64,000 nt of DNA, taken from the IMG/VR virus record IMGVR_UViG_3300048598_000530, positions 28,439-92,438 of that record. One strand, written 5' to 3'. Below, in pieces: positions 4,255-62,974 of the stretch. Numbering within the stretch: the stretch's first letter is position 1; every line of letters begins with the position of its first letter. This DNA comes from a virus. Both the position numbers and the translations under genes were made by a program. A model generated the notes under the pieces. The model saw nothing but the letters and a program-made list of their open reading frames with translations. It ran no database searches and was not told the origin of the DNA.

Positions 4255-6099
4255 TTATGTTCCAGACACTTGCATTCTTGAAGCTTTACCCGTAGATGTA
4301 TTTCTCAATGTAACTCTCATAAAAACAACGCCACTAGAATTAGTAGATGTCATAGTTCCAAAAGACATATTCAAAGTGCTTCCAGAAGATGAACCTAATC
4401 TACATCCATTACCATCACCAAAAGCTCTACCTGCATCTAACCAATTACTTTCGCCTGGCAATCTTACTTCAAAATTAAGACTACCAGAACCAACTGCTGA
4501 TATTGCTGTATAAAGTATACCAGTAAAAACGATACTCATACTTGAGTGTGCTACTCCAATGTTAGCAGCCCAAACACCTACTTGATTACCACTGAAAGTA
4601 CTGTAATTGTTTCCTGATTGAGCAGGCAAATATCCTGAAGTAAAGTTAATATTTGGATAATCCCATACTGAATTATAAAGCATAAGATTTCCGTTCGAAA
4701 GCGCCAATGAACTGTTCCAATTACCTGTAGGATTACTATAATTCACTGGAATAACTGAAAAGTCTGTAGAAAGCAACCATCTGTAATTTTCATCAAACAT
4801 ATAGATATTTCCATTAGTACTATATGTAGACGAATAAGTGTTAATCAATCTATTTTCTGTACTTGATGTCGATGTTGCAGTTTTTGTCGATGGTTTTCTA
4901 GCAGTCACACTAAGTGTTGCATTTATACTATAAACATTACTTACTGATATTGCAACACCAGATACGCTCAAATTAAAAGCTGCATTATATGCAAATGAAC
5001 TACCATCTATAGGTACATCTACAGAAGATATTCCTGACATAACATAAGAAACTGGATTTGTAGGTCTTATAGCTTTATTAGCTAAATTTGTTATAGTACA
5101 TGAAACGTTAAAAGTATCACCATTTGAATAATATCTTATTCCTGATAAATATCTTGTACTTGATAAAGTGTTTTGAACTACAGTAGCACCTGTAGAAAAA
5201 ACTGGTGTAGGATCTTGGTCGTCATACCATACTTTTGTTATTGATGTTACTTGATTGACGCTCGTTGAAAGATATCTCATTGTATGATATTTGTAACCTT
5301 CTGTTACTTGATTGTAATTTATTCGAGCATTTGCTTTTCGCCAAATTGTATTGTAAGTAGCAACAGATAAAATTTCAATTGTATTTGTGACTCCAACACC
5401 AAGCGTAACATCTCTACTTGATAATAACACGCCATCTTCAAAATGTTGTACCGCTCCTTCATCACCACTAAATGTAGAACCAACTTTAAAGTCAGTAGAC
5501 GTGTTAGGACTAGATAAATTATATGTTCCATCAATAACATAGTCAGTTATAGAATCACCTGCAACTTTTCCATCTTGATACCATGAAGATGCTAATCCTG
5601 TAGGTAATATTGCATTGAATTTTGTTGTGTTAGATAATACAAGTGAGCCAGATAAAGCATTAGGTGGTGCAGGAGATATAGCTAACAACAATTTGTTTGT
5701 ATCATCAAGAGCATTTGCTGTTATTGTTTCTGATTCCCATGCAAAGATACCACCTGTATAACCTACACCTAAAGGCAAATCATTAGCAGAACTTACACCA
5801 GCAGCTCCTGTTACACCTTGTATTCCTGTATATCCAAAACCAGCTTGGCCTGTTATGCCTTGCAATCCTGTTGTACCCTGTAGCCCAGTTTCGCCTTGGA
5901 TACCTGTACTACCTTGATTACCTATAAAGCCCTGCAACCCAGTGGCTCCTGAGGCACCCGTCTGTCCCGAGAGACCTGTTATGCCTTGAAGACCGTTTAA
6001 ACCTGTAGCTCCTTGAATGCCTTCTAAGCCTGTTATACCCTGTAGACCAGTTGCACCATTACCAGAGCCACCAAAATTTGTTCTTAAAAAACGTGACAT
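4255..6099 (-). CDS. Collagen-like (Gly-X-Y) virion structural protein
   Basis: N-terminal GLQGITGLEGIQGATG... triplet repeat followed by a Ser/Thr-rich beta-type region. Confidence 0.7.
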   Translation of the reverse strand: MSRFLRTNFGGSGNGATGLQGITGLEGIQGATGLNGLQGITGLSGQTGASGATGLQGFIGNQGSTGIQGETGLQGTTGLQGITGQAGFGYTGIQGVTGAAGVSSANDLPLGVGYTGGIFAWESETITANALDDTNKLLLAISPAPPNALSGSLVLSNTTKFNAILPTGLASSWYQDGKVAGDSITDYVIDGTYNLSSPNTSTDFKVGSTFSGDEGAVQHFEDGVLLSSRDVTLGVGVTNTIEILSVATYNTIWRKANARINYNQVTEGYKYHTMRYLSTSVNQVTSITKVWYDDQDPTPVFSTGATVVQNTLSSTRYLSGIRYYSNGDTFNVSCTITNLANKAIRPTNPVSYVMSGISSVDVPIDGSSFAYNAAFNLSVSGVAISVSNVYSINATLSVTARKPSTKTATSTSSTENRLINTYSSTYSTNGNIYMFDENYRWLLSTDFSVIPVNYSNPTGNWNSSLALSNGNLMLYNSVWDYPNINFTSGYLPAQSGNNYSTFSGNQVGVWAANIGVAHSSMSIVFTGILYTAISAVGSGSLNFEVRLPGESNWLDAGRAFGDGNGCRLGSSSGSTLNMSFGTMTSTNSSGVVFMRVTLRNTSTGKASRMQVSGT

Positions 6100-28053: not shown

Positions 28054-28473
28054 TTAATTTATATGTTTATGAATCTGAATTACACGCTCTTGACCTAATG
28101 CTTTTTCTTTTGTGGGATGTCTACCCAATAATCTATCTTCATCATGTGTATATAAACACCATTGTTGCTCAGAATCAGGTCTTTCATCTTTATCTTTTTT
28201 AGGACATCTTTTAATTATTGCTATTTTGCTAGAACTATCTATAGCATCACTATTCGTATTCAATCTAGAAACCAATTGACTTATAAAGGATGTCAAATCT
28301 AGATAACTCGCGTTTTCTCTAAGTTTGAACTGTTTGATTAGTTCCTTAGACAGTTTTTTCTTTTTATAAAGAATTTCAGCATTTTGCTCTAACATGTCTT
28401 TGCCATTTTGAGCGTAATCGCGTCTTTCTTTTAAAGGTTCTAAGATTTGTGCAATAATTTTCTCTGTATTCAT
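28054..28473 (-). CDS. Hypothetical protein
   Basis: 139-aa ORF; C-terminal WCLY...LLGRHPTKEKA. Confidence 0.55.
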   Translation of the reverse strand: MNTEKIIAQILEPLKERRDYAQNGKDMLEQNAEILYKKKKLSKELIKQFKLRENASYLDLTSFISQLVSRLNTNSDAIDSSSKIAIIKRCPKKDKDERPDSEQQWCLYTHDEDRLLGRHPTKEKALGQERVIQIHKHIN

Positions 28474-54862: not shown

Positions 54863-55951
54863 TTATAATAATCTATTAGTTTTGATTATTTTGTAAAGAA
54901 TTTCGACAAATTCTGTATCAAATTCAATAGATCTTCCTTCAAATAAAACTTGTAAAGCAAATTCTATACTTTGTGCTTTTCTATAGGGTCTGTTTGAGAC
55001 TAAAGAATCGAATGTGTCAGCAACAGCAAGAATTCTTGCACCTGTAGGTATTGCTTTTTCTTTTAGTTTATGCGGATAACCTTTTCCATTCCATCTTTCA
55101 TGATGATGTAAAACATAGTCGCTGATCTTACCTACATTATCGACAGGTTTAATTATTTTATAAGACAGTTCAGAGTGTTTTTTGATTAATTCGTATTCTT
55201 CATCTGTAAGTTTGTCTTTTTTAAAAAGAATCTCGTCTTTAACACCAATTTTGCCTATATCATGTAAACGTCCAGCTATAGCAACGTCTTCAATAAATGC
55301 TTCATCATCAGTGTATTCTAAACAAATTTTCTCAGAAAGTTCGCCGACTTTTTCAGAATGATTTTTTGTATACTCATCTCTTTGTTCTAAAGCATTTGTT
55401 AAAGAAGTAAGCGTATTGAAAAAAATCTTATCTCTTTCTTTTTGAATTACAACAATTTTTGCTCTTAAATTCTCAGCTAAATGTGAATTTCTTCTTAAAT
55501 TTTTTGTGTTTCTAGAAGCTTGTAACAATAATAAACCCAATGTTGTTAATTGAAAAGGTTTATTTAAGAATGCATATATATTCTTTTTTATAATTGTTGT
55601 GATAAATTCATCTGTATTAAAACCTGTCATTAAAATAATAGTAAGCTCTGGATCGATTTTATTAGCTTCATCTACAAAATCAAAACCTGTACACCCATCA
55701 TCAAGAAAAATGTCGCAAATAACTACATCAAACTGGTGACTTTCTACAAGGTTTATAGCTTTAGTTAGATTTTCAGCTGTAAAACAATATCCACCATGAT
55801 TTTCTATAAAAGTTTTAAGAAGATCAAGTTGTATATTATCATCATCAACAACAAGAACTGTCAAGTTCATTAAAATAGATGTGTGTTGTATATCTATAAT
55901 GTTCATTATTTTACCTTTAAACTTGACAATGCATATTGAATCAAAATACAC
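54863..55951 (-). CDS. Response regulator receiver fused to an HD-GYP cyclic-dinucleotide phosphodiesterase
   Basis: REC motifs VLVVDDD, VICDIFL, NKP; HD-GYP motifs YTKNHS, LHDIGKIG, HHERWNGKGYP, AVADTFD, RPYRKA. Confidence 0.92.
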   Translation of the reverse strand: MYFDSICIVKFKGKIMNIIDIQHTSILMNLTVLVVDDDNIQLDLLKTFIENHGGYCFTAENLTKAINLVESHQFDVVICDIFLDDGCTGFDFVDEANKIDPELTIILMTGFNTDEFITTIIKKNIYAFLNKPFQLTTLGLLLLQASRNTKNLRRNSHLAENLRAKIVVIQKERDKIFFNTLTSLTNALEQRDEYTKNHSEKVGELSEKICLEYTDDEAFIEDVAIAGRLHDIGKIGVKDEILFKKDKLTDEEYELIKKHSELSYKIIKPVDNVGKISDYVLHHHERWNGKGYPHKLKEKAIPTGARILAVADTFDSLVSNRPYRKAQSIEFALQVLFEGRSIEFDTEFVEILYKIIKTNRLL

Positions 55952-56054: not shown

Positions 56055-56200
56055 TAGAACAATGCTCTTTTAACAGTGATTGCTTACATTACTTTATAGC
56101 TCAGTTGGTTAGAGCGACCGCCTTAAAAGCAGTAAGTCTCAGGTTCGAATCCTGAAAAAGTAGCCAAAATCTAGCATTTACAACTCAGAGTATTGTTCTA
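56055..56200 (+). ncRNA. Y-RNA-like cassette 1: conserved scaffold enclosing a full tRNA-like cloverleaf (56090-56166, UAA loop, CCA)
   Basis: Closing stem TAGAACAATGCTC/GAGTATTGTTCTA; motifs TTTAAC..TGCTTACA and TAGCA..AACTC. Confidence 0.75.
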
Positions 56201-56222
56201 ATTTTAATAACATGAAAATTAT

Positions 56223-56375
56223 TAAAACTGCTCTTTAACAACAGGTGCTTACACATGGTTTAAGTTAGTCCGAAAGACTAATGAAGACGTTCGAATCGTC
56301 TATTCCCCGTTAAGGAAATTTAAGTTTCTTTAACGGGGAATAAAAAGTTCAGCACGTGAAACTCGAGCAGTTTTA
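56223..56375 (+). ncRNA. Y-RNA-like cassette 2: scaffold enclosing a short hairpin, a T-arm and a 17-bp acceptor-like hairpin
   Basis: Closing stem TAAAACTGCTC/GAGCAGTTTTA; AGACG-TTCGAAT-CGTCT T-arm. Confidence 0.75.
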
Positions 56376-56389
56376 TTTTTTGAAATAAT

Positions 56390-56520
56390 CAAGTGTTCTT
56401 TAACTTTAAATGCTTACATGCTTTTTAGCTCAATGGTCGAGCAATTATTTGGGTATAATGGGTTCTTGGTTCAAGTCCAAGGGAAGCGACAAAAAATAGC
56501 ATTTTGAACTCGAACACTTG
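56390..56520 (+). ncRNA. Y-RNA-like cassette 3: scaffold enclosing a degenerate tRNA-Pro-like cloverleaf
   Basis: Closing stem CAAGTGTTC/GAACACTTG; GCTC/GAGC D-arm; CTTGG-TTCAAGT-CCAAG T-arm. Confidence 0.75.
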
Positions 56521-56537
56521 TTTTTTATAAAGGAAAT

Positions 56538-56688
56538 AAAGTCGTGTCTTTTAACGCTGAAAGCATACATTTTTTTCGTCAGTTCAAATCTGACTATCTC
56601 CTCGGTGAGGGGATATGGCCGAGCGGTTTAAGGCAACCAACTGCTAATTGGAACACAAAAATAGCTCTCAAAACTCAGACATGACTTT
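56538..56688 (+). ncRNA. Y-RNA-like cassette 4: scaffold enclosing a circularly permuted tRNA-Ser(GCU)-like module
   Basis: Closing stem AAAGTCGTGTC/GACATGACTTT; arm order T-arm, closed acceptor, D-arm, anticodon arm. Confidence 0.75.
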
Positions 56689-56717
56689 TTAGTTAAATAG
56701 TTTGGTGGTAAGTTAAA

Positions 56718-56743
56718 GGGGCTCAGTTAAAGAGCCCCTTTTT
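56718..56743 (+). terminator. Intrinsic terminator ending the ncRNA array
   Basis: GGGGCTC-AGTTAAA-GAGCCCC-TTTTT. Confidence 0.9.
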
Positions 56744-56818
56744 GTTTAAATTTTATTTTGTATCTTGTAATTAAAAAACTATAGAAATAAAACATAATTC
56801 TAATGAAAGGAATGAACT

Positions 56819-57073
56819 ATGTCAATTATCCATGTAGCATACGGTGGAAGAAATGAAGATCTTGAGTTTGACGATGTATTTCGTGAAGACAGACTTCATT
56901 CTCTGGGTATGACGACAAAACCTTTGTCACAATCAACAAATCCCGAAACAGTGAAGCGTGCACTTGCAATTCACTATGATGTAAGTTATGACGAGTTTGA
57001 CTCGCATTTTGTTGAAGTCAATCCAAACGGGAACATTACAGTACGTCCCAATGCAAAATGGGGAAGAGGCTAA
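56819..57073 (+). CDS. Putative ubiquitin-like (beta-grasp) modifier
   Basis: 84 aa ending ...NGNITVRPNAKWGRG*; first gene of an operon with E1, JAB and E2-like genes. Fold is inferred. Confidence 0.55.
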   Translation: MSIIHVAYGGRNEDLEFDDVFREDRLHSLGMTTKPLSQSTNPETVKRALAIHYDVSYDEFDSHFVEVNPNGNITVRPNAKWGRG

Positions 57074-57074
57074 A

Positions 57075-58625
57075 ATGGCAACAACACAAAAAACAGAAGA
57101 AGATGTACGTGTTAAAATCTTGAATTCGTTTATGACATGTCCTCATAGAGACACAAACGAATTAAAGGTTATACATGCTGAAATGAGAGAAAAAGATCCT
57201 GTTTTTTACGCACATCTTGCTGCATGGTATAAAAAGAATGGTGAACTTCGTGATCATAACGAAGTTTTTACTGCAATGCTTTTAACAGATCCTTATTTAC
57301 AGAACCGTGAAACAGGTATTGCTCTTTTTCAACAGCAAGCTCCCTTTATGAAAGCAAAAATTATTGGTTTCATAAAAGGTAAAAAAATTATTCTAAGAGA
57401 GAAAACAGGTAAGAAAACTCAACGAGGAAAGAAACTCGTCGATGACATTAAAAACACTGAGAAAAAAGTAGGTCTTGAAAAATCAATTCCAGGTCTTTTG
57501 AAAACAGAGATCACAAAATATCTCAGATGGCTTGAAGCTGATAATGAACGTTTTGATACTGTCGCCTTGAAAAATTTTAAAGAGTTAAAATCTCTTTATG
57601 CAGGAAAGGGCACACAAGTAAAACCAAGTCCAAGAGCGCAAGCTATTCTTTTTGATGAAAAAATTCCTGAAGATAGTAAGCTTTCTGTTTTCAAAAAAAT
57701 AACTAATGCAAAGACTCCTGAAGAGGCTGCACTTCTTATTGTTGAAAATAAAATACCTTACACTATCGCGATAGGTTTAATTGAAAAAATTACGCCTTCA
57801 ATTCTTATTGCTTTAGTTAATAGTATGTCATCACAGGAAATTATTAACAACATTGCATCTTTACAAGAAAAAGGAGCAATGGACAATCCTGGTCTGAAGA
57901 AACTCATCACAGATAAACTTGAGACAGCAAAAACTGCAAAAAATGTTACAGCTCTAAAATCAAAAAGAGCAAAAGCAACAGGAAGAGTTACTGATGAAGC
58001 TGTTGTAAAACAACTCGACGAAATTGCTGACAAACAAATTAAAAAATCAGGAACAATTAAAAGTTCTACAGCAATTCTTGTCGATAAATCAGGTTCTTTA
58101 GCTGTCGCAATTGAAGCAGGAAAACAAATTGCAGCTGCAATTTCAGGTACAATGGAAGCTGATCTTCATGTTATTGCTTATGATACTATTGCTAGATCTA
58201 TTAAAGCAAAAGATAATACTCTTACAGCATGGGAAGAAGCATTTAAACCAATTAAGTCTGATGGAGGAACATCAGCAGGTTGTGCCCTTGAATTTATGTT
58301 GAGATATAAATTGTTTGCTGAACAACTTATTATTGTCACTGATGAAGAAGACAGACATACTCCAAAGTTCTACGACATTTTTCCGAAATATGTTGAAGAA
58401 ATGAAAGTTACTCCACATATTGTTATCGTCAGAGTTGGTAATGTTAATCCTATTTTAAGTACTGAACTTAAAGCAAAAGGAATTGCTTTCGATATTCATG
58501 AGCCTAAAGGAAGTGATTACTATGGAATTCCAGGACTTATTCCTTTGATTTCAAGAAAATCAAAACTTGACTTGGTTTATGAAATTATGGACTTTCCATT
58601 ACCAAAAAGAAAGTCATATGTCTGA
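57075..58625 (+). CDS. TROVE/Ro60-like protein with a C-terminal vWA domain
   Basis: DPVFYAHLAAWY...LRD and MSSQEIINNIASL resemble TROVE helical motifs; MIDAS-like ILVDKSGS...T...VTDEE; probable start MATTQK at 57075. Confidence 0.7.
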   Translation: MATTQKTEEDVRVKILNSFMTCPHRDTNELKVIHAEMREKDPVFYAHLAAWYKKNGELRDHNEVFTAMLLTDPYLQNRETGIALFQQQAPFMKAKIIGFIKGKKIILREKTGKKTQRGKKLVDDIKNTEKKVGLEKSIPGLLKTEITKYLRWLEADNERFDTVALKNFKELKSLYAGKGTQVKPSPRAQAILFDEKIPEDSKLSVFKKITNAKTPEEAALLIVENKIPYTIAIGLIEKITPSILIALVNSMSSQEIINNIASLQEKGAMDNPGLKKLITDKLETAKTAKNVTALKSKRAKATGRVTDEAVVKQLDEIADKQIKKSGTIKSSTAILVDKSGSLAVAIEAGKQIAAAISGTMEADLHVIAYDTIARSIKAKDNTLTAWEEAFKPIKSDGGTSAGCALEFMLRYKLFAEQLIIVTDEEDRHTPKFYDIFPKYVEEMKVTPHIVIVRVGNVNPILSTELKAKGIAFDIHEPKGSDYYGIPGLIPLISRKSKLDLVYEIMDFPLPKRKSYV

Positions 58626-59463
58626 TGTTTTAAATCTAATCAAACAAATGGGAGAGAAAGAAGCAGCAATGAGCAATTTTATCTCTCCCGTTTTTTTCAA
58701 TGAATTTGTTACTACAAAACTTGATGGTGTAGTTTACAAATTCAAAATTTCACAAAAAACTCCTGGTTGGTATAAAGTAAAGCCAATCAACACAAAACAA
58801 GCAAAAACTGTTTGTAATGCTGAACTTCACGAAATTGATGATTACTTAAAAAGACTTGCAAAAATTCGTTTGATTTTTGTAATGAGAAAAGATAATGTTT
58901 TTTTAGCTATACCTGAAAAAAACAATAATCTAAATCTTCCTATAGATCAATTAATCTCTGTTTTTTTATTTGATGATACTGTTCTTGATTTTGACAAAGT
59001 TATTTGTCGTTTTGATGGTGCAAATTTTTGGTATCATCAAAACGATCCTTCAAGCGATCCTTCAAAATCTATGTATTTGAGAGAGCAATTACATAAAGTA
59101 ACTGACCCTAAAAAAATTACTTTTCTGGGTTTAACAACAGAAGAAAAAATTGCTTATACTTTAAGAGTAACTATAGACAAAAGTCTTATTATTGATAGAA
59201 AAAAAGAATCATTAAAAAATGATGTTGAACATGCAGGTGGTAAATTCATAGATTTTATAGAAAAAAATGATCATTTTAGCGTGACATATACTGTAGATGG
59301 TGATTCATACACAAGCAATGTAAGTAAAAACGAAACACACAGCGTAATAACAGCAGGAATTTGTTTGTCTGGTGAAGATAGAAAATACGATTTAAAAAGT
59401 TTGATTACCGTAATGAGAGAGGGTCAACGTGAGCGGAGAATTTATAGAACACATAACGTTTAA
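58618..59463 (+). CDS. Putative prokaryotic E2-like conjugating protein
   Basis: C-terminal alpha/beta domain with AGICLSGED, resembling the UBC catalytic GxICL; operon position between TROVE and JAB. Confidence 0.45.
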   Translation: MSDVLNLIKQMGEKEAAMSNFISPVFFNEFVTTKLDGVVYKFKISQKTPGWYKVKPINTKQAKTVCNAELHEIDDYLKRLAKIRLIFVMRKDNVFLAIPEKNNNLNLPIDQLISVFLFDDTVLDFDKVICRFDGANFWYHQNDPSSDPSKSMYLREQLHKVTDPKKITFLGLTTEEKIAYTLRVTIDKSLIIDRKKESLKNDVEHAGGKFIDFIEKNDHFSVTYTVDGDSYTSNVSKNETHSVITAGICLSGEDRKYDLKSLITVMREGQRERRIYRTHNV

Positions 59464-59845
59464 AGAACGTTGTTGGATTGTTTATGGTTTTTGGATTGGT
59501 CCTTTTGTCATAGGTAGATTGAAATATCTTTCTGAAGGAGAAACTTGTTCAGTAAATTTTGATTGGCAAAAAGGTCTTTCAAAATATGTTCTTGGCTGGT
59601 TTCATACACATCCAGAAAGTGTTTCTCTTAGTCCAAGCAACGAAGATATAAAAACTATGAAATCTTGGGTTAGAACTTTAGAACGACCTTTGATTTGTGG
59701 CATCATGTATGACAATAAAAAACTGAAGAGAGACTTTCTTTGGAGAAATTGTTATTTGTTTAAACGTTGGCCCGATAAAAAAATTTACTATCAACCAATT
59801 ATGAAAGATAAGCTTTTTAAAAACTTCTACATCGGAAAATTATGA
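59429..59845 (+). CDS. JAB/MPN metallopeptidase (deconjugase)
   Basis: E...GWFHTHP...SPSNED (HxH-x7-S-x2-D). Confidence 0.85.
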   Translation: MSGEFIEHITFKERCWIVYGFWIGPFVIGRLKYLSEGETCSVNFDWQKGLSKYVLGWFHTHPESVSLSPSNEDIKTMKSWVRTLERPLICGIMYDNKKLKRDFLWRNCYLFKRWPDKKIYYQPIMKDKLFKNFYIGKL

Positions 59846-60477
59846 AAACTTTAAAGCATGAAGAACTTTATAGATCAGCTGATCTAATGACAAAAATGGC
59901 AAATCTTGACATTGTTATGTGTGGAATTGGAGCAATTGGCTCAAATCTTGTCGAGAATCTTGTACGTCAAGGTTTTAAAAAAATCACTGCAATTGATTTT
60001 GATAGAATTGAAGAACATAACAGACATACACAAATCTGGTATGCTCGAGATGTTGGTCAGTTAAAAGCAACAATGCTTAAAAACAGAATATTCGACATAA
60101 TGAATATTCCTATTGAAGTTGTGCCCAAAAAATTAGAAGAAGCAAATTCAAAAAAAATACTCAACACTCAGGGAGTTGTAATTGATGGATTTGACAATGT
60201 TGCAAGTAGAAAATTTGTTACTGAGTATTGCTCTATATACAAAACAAACTGCTTACATATTGGATTATTTAAAGATTATGCTGAAATAATATGGAATGAA
60301 AGATACAGAGTTCCTGACGATACTAAAAATATAGATGTTTGTGAATATCCTTTAGCGAGAAATATCATTTTATTGGCTGTTGCTGTAGCGACAGAGATAT
60401 TAATAACATATTTAGAAAAAAAAGAAAAACAGAACTGCATTATAACATTAAAAGATCTGAAAATCACGAGGATATAA
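59842..60477 (+). CDS. ThiF/E1-like adenylating enzyme
   Basis: CGIGAIGS, IDFDRIEEHN, KA, VIDGFDN, distal Cys (DVCEYP). Confidence 0.9.
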   Translation: MKTLKHEELYRSADLMTKMANLDIVMCGIGAIGSNLVENLVRQGFKKITAIDFDRIEEHNRHTQIWYARDVGQLKATMLKNRIFDIMNIPIEVVPKKLEEANSKKILNTQGVVIDGFDNVASRKFVTEYCSIYKTNCLHIGLFKDYAEIIWNERYRVPDDTKNIDVCEYPLARNIILLAVAVATEILITYLEKKEKQNCIITLKDLKITRI

Positions 60478-60968
60478 TGGAAGAACTTTGGTTTACAATG
60501 CTTATCGGTATCCCAGGTTGTGGCAAAAGCACATATATAAGTCTTCAACCAAAATCAAAATTTGGTAGCATCATTTGTCCTGACTCAATAAGACGATCTC
60601 TCACAGGAGATATTTCAGATCAAAGCCAAAATCAACTTGTTTGGCAGATTGCTCAATATACCACGAAATGGGCGCTTATAAATTTGTTGTCTGTTACTGT
60701 AGATGCAGTCAATACTGATACATATTTAAGAAGAGATTTTTTACAAAAACTGAAAAATTCAGGCGTTTATGGAGGATTTAAAAAGCGTGCAATTGTTTTC
60801 GAAATAGATCCAGATGAAGCAATTAAGCGTGTTGAAAAAAGGTTTAACAGACCTCCTGTACCACCTGAAAGAATCTACAAAATGTACGGAGAGTTTTTAT
60901 ATACAAAAAAAGTCTTACATGAAGAAGAATGGGATTCTATCCAGTTTATAGGAGAAAAAAATGGCTGA
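60477..60968 (+). CDS. AAA_33 / polynucleotide-kinase-like P-loop kinase
   Basis: GIPGCGKST, ICPDSIR, VDAVN, RxxxR lid (AIKRVEKRFNRPPVP). Confidence 0.8.
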   Translation: MEELWFTMLIGIPGCGKSTYISLQPKSKFGSIICPDSIRRSLTGDISDQSQNQLVWQIAQYTTKWALINLLSVTVDAVNTDTYLRRDFLQKLKNSGVYGGFKKRAIVFEIDPDEAIKRVEKRFNRPPVPPERIYKMYGEFLYTKKVLHEEEWDSIQFIGEKNG

Positions 60969-62373
60969 AAAACTCTTAAAATCAAGAAAAGTAGCATCAC
61001 ATCAAAACGACGGTTTTGTAAAAACTTTAAAACATAAAGTTTTGTTTTGTGGAAATCCTGAAGGCAATAATAACAAGTTCTACTCAATAGAGCTTCAAGT
61101 AAATCCCAAAGACGAACATCGTCTTTTTACTCATTATGGCCGTCTCGGAAAAACAGATGTTTATGAAGTTCGTGATGAATATCTTGGGAAGACTCTTGAT
61201 TTTACTACAGCCGATCGTGAATTCGAAGTTATCCTTGCAAGTAAACTCAAAGGAAAGAAAAAAGAAAGTGAACTTGGAGGAACACGCGAAGAAAAATACG
61301 AACTTGTCGAAACATTCGCTCCGACTGTTGGTTCTGTAAACGTCAGAGGAAAAAACGCTATTATCCAAGTCACAACTATTGCAAAAGACGTAGTTAGTTC
61401 ATATTCTGACCCTGAAGTTTCGAGAATCATACGTCAAATCGTCGATGAAAATATACATAATATCTCTTCAATGACTTCTTTGAAACTCACTTCAAACGGA
61501 TTTGAAACACCACTTGGTCCTGTAACTAAAGAGCATGTGCAACGAGCTAGAGAACCTTTAATGGCTCTTAAAAAAATAATGATCAATGACGAAATCAACC
61601 CTGATACACAAATAACACGTGATTATAACGCAAAATATTTCTCTTTGATACCTCATTCTTTCGGTCACAAAATAACTCAAGAAGATTGGATTTTAACTGC
61701 TGCAAAACTTGCTGAAGAACTTGAACTTCTTGACAACCTTGAATCTGCAGTCCAAATGGGTGCTGCTCTACAGAATGCATCAAAACAAAAACAAGCAATT
61801 GGTACAGACATTGAAGTTCTTACTGATTCGGTAGAGTTCAATAGAATTGCAAAATATATTACAGACTCAAAAGCAGGTAACCATAGAGGTTCTGATGTTT
61901 GGAATTGGAAACCCAAAAACATCTATAAAATCAAAATTCCTACAGAACGTACTCGTTATGAAAAAACCGAAAAACAATTTGGCAACAAACATGAACTTTT
62001 TCATGGCTCAAAAAACAGTAACATTTTAAGTATCCTTAAAGGTGGTCTGATTATTCCCGCAGTAAATGCTGGTTTTGTAACAGGTAGAATGTTTGGTGAT
62101 GGCCTTTATTTTGCAAATAACTCAACAAAATCACTGAATTACTCTACAGGATTTTGGGGAGGCAAAGCAAACAAATACACAAATTCTTTTTTGTTTTTAG
62201 CAAATGTTAACATGGGAAAAACATTTGTTTCTCATGATCCAAGATATTCAGGTGCTCCTCATGGCTATGACTCTATTCATGCTCAAAAAGGAAGATCACT
62301 CCATAACGATGAATTTATTGTTTTCAAACTACAACAAGCGACTTTAACATATTTGGTCGAAATGTCAAAATAA
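60961..62373 (+). CDS. WGR-domain poly(ADP-ribose) polymerase-like protein
   Basis: FYSIEL...HYGRLG (WGR), YFSLIPH (regulatory domain), FHGS / GLYFA / NDEF catalytic H-Y-E triad. Confidence 0.9.
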   Translation: MAEKLLKSRKVASHQNDGFVKTLKHKVLFCGNPEGNNNKFYSIELQVNPKDEHRLFTHYGRLGKTDVYEVRDEYLGKTLDFTTADREFEVILASKLKGKKKESELGGTREEKYELVETFAPTVGSVNVRGKNAIIQVTTIAKDVVSSYSDPEVSRIIRQIVDENIHNISSMTSLKLTSNGFETPLGPVTKEHVQRAREPLMALKKIMINDEINPDTQITRDYNAKYFSLIPHSFGHKITQEDWILTAAKLAEELELLDNLESAVQMGAALQNASKQKQAIGTDIEVLTDSVEFNRIAKYITDSKAGNHRGSDVWNWKPKNIYKIKIPTERTRYEKTEKQFGNKHELFHGSKNSNILSILKGGLIIPAVNAGFVTGRMFGDGLYFANNSTKSLNYSTGFWGGKANKYTNSFLFLANVNMGKTFVSHDPRYSGAPHGYDSIHAQKGRSLHNDEFIVFKLQQATLTYLVEMSK

Positions 62374-62383
62374 AGGAGTTTTT

Positions 62384-62974
62384 ATGTCATCAACAATTAT
62401 TCAAGCTCAGTTTGAAAAGTTTGTTGCAGCTGATGCTATGTTTACGTCAGTTGACATCGGGAATGCTATCAAAGAAAACGGTACATGGATCAAAAACAGC
62501 GATGTTTCAATCTGGCTCCGAAATAATGCACTTACAATTGCTTCCAATTATTGTTCAACATTAATAAGCGTCTTGAATAATACGCAGAAAACTTTCCTTT
62601 ATCATCCTGCTGGCACAAATCCCGATGATTATCAAACCAGAGATCAAGCTGCACTTCCGCCAAATCCGAATATGAAATCTGTGACAGTGTCGACATGTCC
62701 TGCATCGTGTCCTGCAAGTACAACAGTCAAAACAAAACTCAGGTCTGATAGTAGAGCAAGACTTCGAATTCCTGCAATACTTGTTCGTCAACTTGGATTA
62801 AATCCTGGCGATATCGTTGATTTCTCAAAAATCCTTTTTCACAAACAACCTGATAATGACCTTATTGTTTACAAAGATGGCAGAATATCGTTCTCCCGCA
62901 ATTGTCTCAGTTTTGGTGATGGTCCTGTTCTTGCTTTCATCGAAAATGGTTGTTTGAACTTTGAAAAACCATGA
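62384..62974 (+). CDS. Hypothetical protein with a C-terminal AbrB/SpoVT-like domain
   Basis: DSRARLRIPAILVRQLGLNPGD. Confidence 0.55.
   Translation: MSSTIIQAQFEKFVAADAMFTSVDIGNAIKENGTWIKNSDVSIWLRNNALTIASNYCSTLISVLNNTQKTFLYHPAGTNPDDYQTRDQAALPPNPNMKSVTVSTCPASCPASTTVKTKLRSDSRARLRIPAILVRQLGLNPGDIVDFSKILFHKQPDNDLIVYKDGRISFSRNCLSFGDGPVLAFIENGCLNFEKP

Follow-up and report, generated by a model that had tools for sequence, protein, structure and literature searches.

A candidate ubiquitin-like tagging module encoded around a divergent Ro60 homologue in phage DNA

A stretch of 64,000 nt of viral DNA (IMG/VR record IMGVR_UViG_3300048598_000530, positions 28,439 to 92,438; hereafter the window) carries five co-oriented genes on the + strand, at 56819-60477, which we read as one functional tagging module organized around a phage Ro60-type ribonucleoprotein. 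They encode a small glycine-ended candidate ubiquitin-like protein (Ubl; g1), a very divergent Ro60 homologue (g2), a protein of a new family with a conserved cysteine (g3), a JAB/JAMM metallopeptidase (g4) and a minimal ThiF-type E1 (g5). In this reading, to which we give a probability of about 0.6, the glycine of g1 would be exposed, activated and passed to a target linked to the particle. The source record is 119 kb long, with an estimated completeness of 52%, and genes for portal, large terminase, head protease, tail fibre and ribonucleotide reductase identify the window as phage DNA.

The five open reading frames (ORFs) lie where the preliminary description had placed them, and the tight coupling that it claimed was confirmed at every junction, with either a 1-nt gap or overlaps of 4 to 35 nt. 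g1 (56819-57073) encodes 84 amino acids (aa) and ends in AKWGRG*. g2 (57075-58625, 516 aa) starts at an ATG located 1 nt past the g1 stop; this start is shared with homologues, and a longer frame from 56988 runs into g1. g3 (58618-59463, 281 aa) overlaps g2 by 8 nt, g4 (59429-59845, 138 aa) has a GTG start, and g5 (59842-60477, 211 aa) overlaps g4 at an ATGA.

The same arrangement is found in relatives. All-against-all clustering of the ORFs of 21 loci left the five module families as the only ones in common, and the gene-neighbourhood survey, carried out by hidden Markov model (HMM) scans as a follow-up to the preliminary description, recovered the order g1-g2-g3-JAB-E1 in about 30 loci, with occasional insertions. 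This order holds among relatives whose g3 identity goes down to 27-33%. Since the same five families alone are common to the 21 loci and their order recurs in about 30, the set is far beyond chance. Carriers are mostly viral contigs of 100-570 kb (huge phages), and the g2 protein of the window is also found on a 427-kb contig. Relatives occur on contigs from sequencing runs of sludge, wastewater and soil. Among deposited phages, megablast gave no match and tblastn of g2 a single one, in an unannotated 595-kb uncultured phage. A version without JAB is present on plasmid pAfl69 of Dolichospermum flos-aquae CCAP 1403/13F, in the order tRNA-like gene, g1 (C-terminus YG), tRNA-like gene, g2 (41% identity), g3 (31%) and E1 (47%). 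Judged from this copy, the module is not restricted to phages. The initial view of a ‘phage-side’ pathway thus holds for most carriers but is too narrow, given the Dolichospermum plasmid. A scan of genome contigs with a single peptide pattern found one contig only, from a metagenome-assembled genome, and has little bearing on cellular distribution.

No Pfam or PHROG match was obtained for g1. Its invariant residues are H5, G10, R76 and G82 (codon 57062-57064), and in 28 instances the conserved end reads ...(I/L)T(V/L)RPxAx(W/F/Y)G. Past this glycine, nothing follows in 13 of the 28, 1-4 extra residues follow in 12, and in the remaining 3 an in-frame fusion leads into g2. The tails are unconserved (RG in the window; GH, K, TR, SK, KS, NG, KIET, IA, G and GI elsewhere), and the junction of the fusions falls directly after the invariant glycine. 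For one such fusion, contigs of two independent runs encode an identical protein. In every complete locus where g1 carries a tail or a fusion, JAB is present, and in the two versions lacking JAB, L017 and pAfl69, g1 is tail-less. The glycine is thus an exposable end, and the pattern is that expected of a Ubl made as a precursor and trimmed by the peptidase of the same module. This supports both the small glycine-ended Ubl of the preliminary description and its proposal that removal of the terminal RG would expose ...KWG. A precedent exists in the peptidase-E1 fusion BubCD, which cleaves BubAB and frees the Ubl from a fusion protein (PMC11601596). The ESM Atlas model of g1 (predicted template-modelling score, pTM, 0.72) has named structural neighbours which are all ubiquitin-like.

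g5 matched Pfam ThiF with 93.6 bits (cut-off 28.1; E 1.3e-26), the short ThiF equivalogs thiF_fam2/PRK08644 of NCBIfam (E 8e-24) and, at 2e-13, the E1 domains of Cap2 from the cyclic oligonucleotide-based antiphage signalling system (CBASS). In 15 orthologues the nucleotide-binding-type motif GxGxxG (59923-59940) and residues R42, D52, N60, Q64, K75, D115, D118, N119 and R123 are invariant, as is Cys167 of the CEYP motif (codon 60340-60342; 15/15). The assignment to a minimal ThiF-type E1 with a distal cysteine therefore stands on profile and motif, and Cys167, located after the adenylation core, could carry the Ubl. For g4, the match to Pfam Prok-JAB/JAB was below the cut-off (E about 1e-3, 19.1 bits for a cut-off of 25), while PADLOC JAB models were matched down to 5e-6. 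The L011 orthologue passes the Prok-JAB cut-off with 32.6 bits. g4 has a complete JAMM motif composed of E13 (59465-59467) and H59-T-H61...S70-x-x-D73 (59603-59647), with E13, H59, H61, S70 and D73 invariant in 17 orthologues. Because the motif is invariant and an orthologue scores above the cut-off, the predicted JAB/JAMM metallopeptidase stands despite the weak match of g4 itself, in agreement with the intact HxH...S..D noted initially.

The TROVE-vWA assignment of g2 was also recovered, in this case by profile-profile comparison. No Pfam match, including TROVE, was obtained for g2, the homology being invisible to HMMER, and no Pfam TROVE was found in the whole record (E<=1) or in four related phage genomes that are 98-100% complete. 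We built a canonical TROVE+vWA_Ro60 alignment (A5) for comparison with an alignment of the g2 family (A6). hhalign gave a probability of 97.5% (E 4.9e-12, 381 columns), with query 20-474 aligned to template 42-468 and the two domains in the same order. In agreement with this, the only PDB matches of the g2-family profile were the Thermus phage Ro60 structures 9KOP and 9L5Y (E 0.5), PF25045 vWA_Ro60 was matched by 8 of 44 family members, and the protein-language feature neighbours of g2 in the Atlas are TROVE clusters. The MIDAS (metal ion-dependent adhesion site) residues D337, S339, S341, T399 and D423 do not vary across 48 sequences (DxSxS at 58083-58097). Since the profile match covers both domains and the MIDAS is invariant, g2 is by these criteria of homology a genuine, very divergent Ro60, in which a helical, TROVE-like part is joined to a vWA domain.

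g3 belongs to a family with 209 close homologues and 971 clusters at 50% identity, for which there is no Pfam model. AlphaFold (AF2) models of g3 and of its C-terminal domain had predicted local distance difference test (pLDDT) values of 87 and 88, respectively. The modelled N-terminal part consists of a helix and two OB-like barrels (about residues 20-150), with OB-type structural matches to RNase II, S1, CSD and Mpa/PAN, and the C-terminal part of a long helix, a 4-strand meander, a loop carrying Cys249 and a helix. This cysteine, in the GICL motif already pointed out in the preliminary description (codon 59362-59364), is invariant in sets of 46 and 69 sequences and kept in 147 of 148 representatives, in the context (A/S)G-x-C-L-x-G-x-D-x-x-F-D-L. 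There is no conserved HPN, and a His located 8 residues before the Cys alternates with Arg. In the model, the order of elements in the C-terminal domain recalls a UBC core; homology to UBC is not demonstrated. We therefore regard g3 as a new OB-plus-Cys protein and a candidate carrier, and do not count it within the E2 family. RTX-adhesin repeats were the sole matches of the C-terminal domain in a PDB profile search and were discarded as spurious, and DUF4747/RexA, with an Atlas feature score of 0.85, was at noise level. Many g3 relatives (e.g. P0017, P0048, P0381, P0416 and P0507) carry an acidic C-terminal tail (...DDDDYED, ...DDEDDW), in some cases with a terminal aromatic residue; the window copy has no such tail.

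Upstream of g1, four Y-RNA-like cassettes form an array on the + strand at 56060-56686 (56060-56195, 56224-56374, 56390-56520 and 56540-56686). All four fold alike: each has a closing stem of 9-10 bp and an inner helix, together with an internal loop common to the four and an insert that resembles a tRNA. The 5′ motif TCTT(1-2)AAC(5-8)GCWTACA occurs 4 times for 0.05 expected, and again 4 times at the equivalent place in the closest relative, L001. Matches to tRNA or tRNA-like genes lie at 56090-56166, 56419-56490 and 56609-56669. This array beside g2 resembles, by analogy, Ro60 with its YrlA-type RNAs. The fourth cassette contains what seems to be a circularly permuted tRNA (56572-56660; kept in L001 at about 4932-5072), in the order T-arm, 3′ acceptor strand, 5′ acceptor strand, D-arm and anticodon arm. 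In about 13 of 19 relatives, tRNA genes or odd tRNA-like ones adjoin the module on its own strand. Upstream of g1/g2 in L001, L004, L006, L007, L010 and L013, ARAGORN reported tRNA-like genes with unusual anticodons (Asn-ATT, Ile-AAT, Ile-TAT and SeC-TCA), which would fit mimics better than tRNAs used in decoding. Between the array and g1 lies a strong hairpin of terminator type (56715-56741, + strand; a stem of 10 bp, 6 of them GC, followed by a T run); a promoter-like site (56771-56798, + strand) comes after it, still before g1. No terminator-like site was found on the + strand within 56819-62400.

Taken together, these features suggest the following scheme. g1 would be made as a precursor and cut by JAB past the aromatic-Gly, which would remove Arg-Gly here and, in some relatives, release g1 from its Ro60-like fusion. 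The minimal E1 would adenylate the exposed glycine and probably take g1 onto Cys167. The Ubl could then pass to Cys249 of g3, acting as a functional E2-like carrier with no recognisable UBC, or straight to its target. The Ro60-like ring, the OB protein g3 and the adjacent Y-RNA-like and tRNA-like RNAs would form a particle, and its components or its clients would be the likeliest targets. JAB may also reverse the mark. As to biological role, we infer that the module would control or assemble a particle that handles RNA in the service of the phage's large tRNA set.

Several observations weigh against this scheme. The ubiquitin-like fold of g1 is that of a candidate beta-grasp protein resting on the ESM Atlas model, with TM scores of just 0.44-0.52 to named Ubl clusters (Prok_Ub 0.44, Ufm1 0.46/0.49, ubiquitin/Rad60-SLD 0.52) and of 0.71-0.75 to unnamed bacterial clusters. 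g1 was not detected by HMM scan in the loci L018-L020; in L018 and L020 an unrelated protein of 81-82 aa stands in its place. The E2 assignment of g3 made in the preliminary description was not supported. No match to UBC or Prok-E2 was found in Pfam, PADLOC and NCBIfam at E<0.1. Fold searches were conducted with the C-terminal domain alone, because those with the whole g3 model were swamped by OB-fold matches. Foldseek against PDB, AFDB clusters and Swiss-Prot returned no E2 and no clear fold, and Ubc9 and RWD domains were matched by VIA at noise level only. hhalign to one Prok-E2_A fragment gave a probability of 0.75%; this fragment was the whole of the comparison set, which was drawn from genomes of one cellular phylum and included no Cap2. 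As neither a UBC profile nor a UBC fold was matched, we do not call g3 an E2. At the RNA level, read-length contigs of wastewater RNA-seq, near-identical to the window, cover 56121-56398 and leave the protein genes almost bare, a hint of abundant cassette RNA which contigs are unable to prove. Finally, the family closest to g5 is that of ThiF family 2 sulfur-carrier enzymes.

This last point leads to an alternative in which the module is an E2-less sulfur carrier of the SAMP/TtuB/Urm1/CysO type. The E1 would adenylate g1, which a persulfide would convert to a thiocarboxylate, g3 would relay the sulfur via Cys249 for thiolation of an OB-bound tRNA-like RNA, and JAB would only trim the precursor, as Mec+ trims that of CysO. 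Besides the best E1 matches, to sulfur-carrier adenylyltransferases, the lack of an E2 fold in g3 and the setting of the module among tRNA and tRNA-like genes speak for it. So does a class-V aminotransferase of the cysteine-desulfurase type (Aminotran_5, E 7.7e-70) directly upstream of the module in two divergent loci, L018 (1-1131) and L020 (3224-4375), just before the 81-82 aa protein. The statement that no sulfur genes are adjacent is therefore true at the window locus but not in these two. Nevertheless, such a neighbour occurs in just 2 of about 30 loci, both without detected g1, and no PP-loop thiolase, rhodanese or sulfur donor was found among the families conserved in the 21 loci or in the window. 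ThiS, MoaD, CysO, TtuB, SAMP and Urm1 typically end in Gly-Gly, whereas the end here is aromatic-Gly, (W/F/Y)G. We consider this alternative unlikely, though worth keeping in view.

Alternatively, g1 could be just an accessory part of the Ro60-like protein, either a domain at its N-terminus or a subunit, which became a separate gene in most lineages and whose own C-terminus is never activated, with E1 and JAB acting elsewhere. The constant position of g1 directly upstream of g2, and its fusion to it in three lineages, would be accounted for; the junction exactly past the invariant glycine, with later residues unconserved or absent, would not, nor would the strict co-occurrence of g1 with E1 and of tails with JAB, and we find this very improbable. 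The module could also serve counter-defence, JAB stripping host conjugates of the Bil/CBASS type, and E1 with g1 serving as decoy to the host's ubiquitin-like immunity. The models closest to g4 are indeed Cap3-type and 6A-MBL JAB models, and g5 matches Cap2 E1 domains, but these Cap2/Cap3 matches are generic, at the level of domains. Since the constant tie is to a Ro60 homologue and RNA genes instead of defence-related targets, and since a cyanobacterial plasmid carries the module without JAB, this is in our view the most remote of the readings.

Two genes coupled downstream to g5 bear on a variant of the tagging reading. A PNK-like P-loop kinase (60477-60968, + strand) is translationally coupled to the E1, the stop codon of one gene overlapping the start codon of the next, and the gene for a full WGR-PARP_reg-PARP protein (60961-62373, + strand) overlaps that of the kinase; both assignments rest on Pfam, PHROG and NCBIfam matches. 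The two occur together only in the window and in L001, with a kinase after E1 also in L026, and are, by this distribution, a lineage-specific add-on to the module. In the variant, the Ubl would be attached to the RNA of the particle instead of a protein lysine: g3 would hold a tRNA-like or Y-like RNA by its OB part and carry the Ubl on Cys249, and an RNA end would be modified. The acceptor in this lineage could be an ADP-ribosylated 5′ phosphate produced by the kinase and WGR-PARP. We regard this as highly speculative and improbable; if true, nature would have a ubiquitin-like conjugation of protein to RNA, with a Ro60 ring as its gate.

The tagging reading can be compared with known systems. 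Archaeal SAMP/UbaA/HvJAMM1 and Thermus TtuB/TtuC with its JAMM peptidase are E2-less prokaryotic Ubl systems. The module shares with SAMP/TtuB a small glycine-ended protein (here a candidate Ubl), a MoeB/ThiF-type E1, a JAMM peptidase, the lack of a recognisable UBC E2 and a link to tRNA. It differs by its aromatic-Gly end in place of Gly-Gly, by an E1 of just 211 aa without rhodanese or zinc tetrad, and by an obligatory Cys protein, g3, and an equally obligatory Ro60 homologue, with no thiolation enzyme. Among eukaryotic systems, Atg8, Atg12 and Ufm1 end in aromatic- or aliphatic-Gly behind a short tail that is cut by Atg4/UfSP, and their E1s Atg7 and Uba5 are compact and of the homodimer type. 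The tail-hidden aromatic-Gly end of g1 is similar to those of Ufm1 and Atg8, and Ufm1 is among the structural neighbours of the g1 model. In contrast, no sequence homology is demonstrated, the protease is a JAMM metalloenzyme instead of a Cys protease, and no E2 of the Atg3/Ufc1 type was detected.

The preliminary description had placed the genes with the core of Bil- and CBASS-type systems. As in Bil (BilA-D), type II CBASS Cap2/Cap3 and Bub (PMC11601596), a Ubl (here a candidate), an E1 and a JAB are encoded in one operon, and as in Bub the Ubl of some relatives would depend on a peptidase for its release from a fusion. With Cap2/Cap3, the likeness consists of domain-level matches only, of g5 to the Cap2 E1 and of g4 to Cap3-type JAB. 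Unlike in these three systems, most carriers of the module are phages and not defence islands, and g3 matches none of their E2 parts, as judged by profile searches and the one Prok-E2_A fragment. The partner, predicted to be an RNA-binding ring, also differs from a CD-NTase or a phage tail target. Because the E2 assignment is unsupported, the link to Bil and CBASS is one of analogy and not of membership.

On the RNA side, g2 is comparable to bacterial Rsr with YrlA/YrlB and to the Ro60 of Thermus phage phiLo with Yrl1/Yrl2 (PDB 9KOP/9L5Y, PMC12135203), all combining TROVE and vWA with an intact MIDAS and having, encoded beside the gene, structured RNAs in which a tRNA-like module goes with a long closing stem. 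Unlike canonical Ro60, g2 escapes Pfam TROVE, and unlike phiLo Ro60 it is always linked to Ubl, E1, JAB and g3, a link which the phiLo paper does not mention. Ro60 is known to act in RNA quality control, but the role of its vWA/MIDAS site is stated there as unclear (PMC12135203). From the conserved coupling to Ubl activation and trimming we hypothesize that a covalent tag serves to regulate or assemble Ro60-type particles. Since the module adjoins the tRNA arrays and mimics of huge phages, it may help to keep translation running in infected cells.

The module would add to the prokaryotic ubiquitin-like systems a large family with an aromatic-Gly end and no UBC-type E2, having as signature gene g3 with its 971 clusters; the invariant Cys of this protein may make it a new kind of carrier. 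We found no paper on the coupling of ubiquitin-like tagging genes with a Ro60-type RNA particle. A jumbo-phage survey notes TROVE and PARP separately, and a term search of it gave no Ubl link; an NAD/ADP-ribose survey does not mention a link between Ubl and Ro60. The pAfl69 copy, in a cultured cyanobacterium, offers an experimental entry point.

Other genes surround the module. The product of the gene following the PARP (62384-62974) has 196 aa and, at its C-terminal end, a segment like SpoVT/AbrB (MazE_antitoxin); this gene is kept in L001. On the other side, a response-regulator receiver fused to HD_5 (54863-55951, - strand) is divergent from the RNA array, and the same gene is found at the same place in L026. 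There, next to the response-regulator/HD gene and upstream of a version of the module with fused Ubl, a 122-aa protein (479-847, - strand) showed a weak match to DUF6527, just under the cut-off (E 1.2e-4); another tool labels this family BubE. Phage tmRNA genes lie shortly downstream of the E1 in L007 (14057-14405) and L020 (13132-13531).

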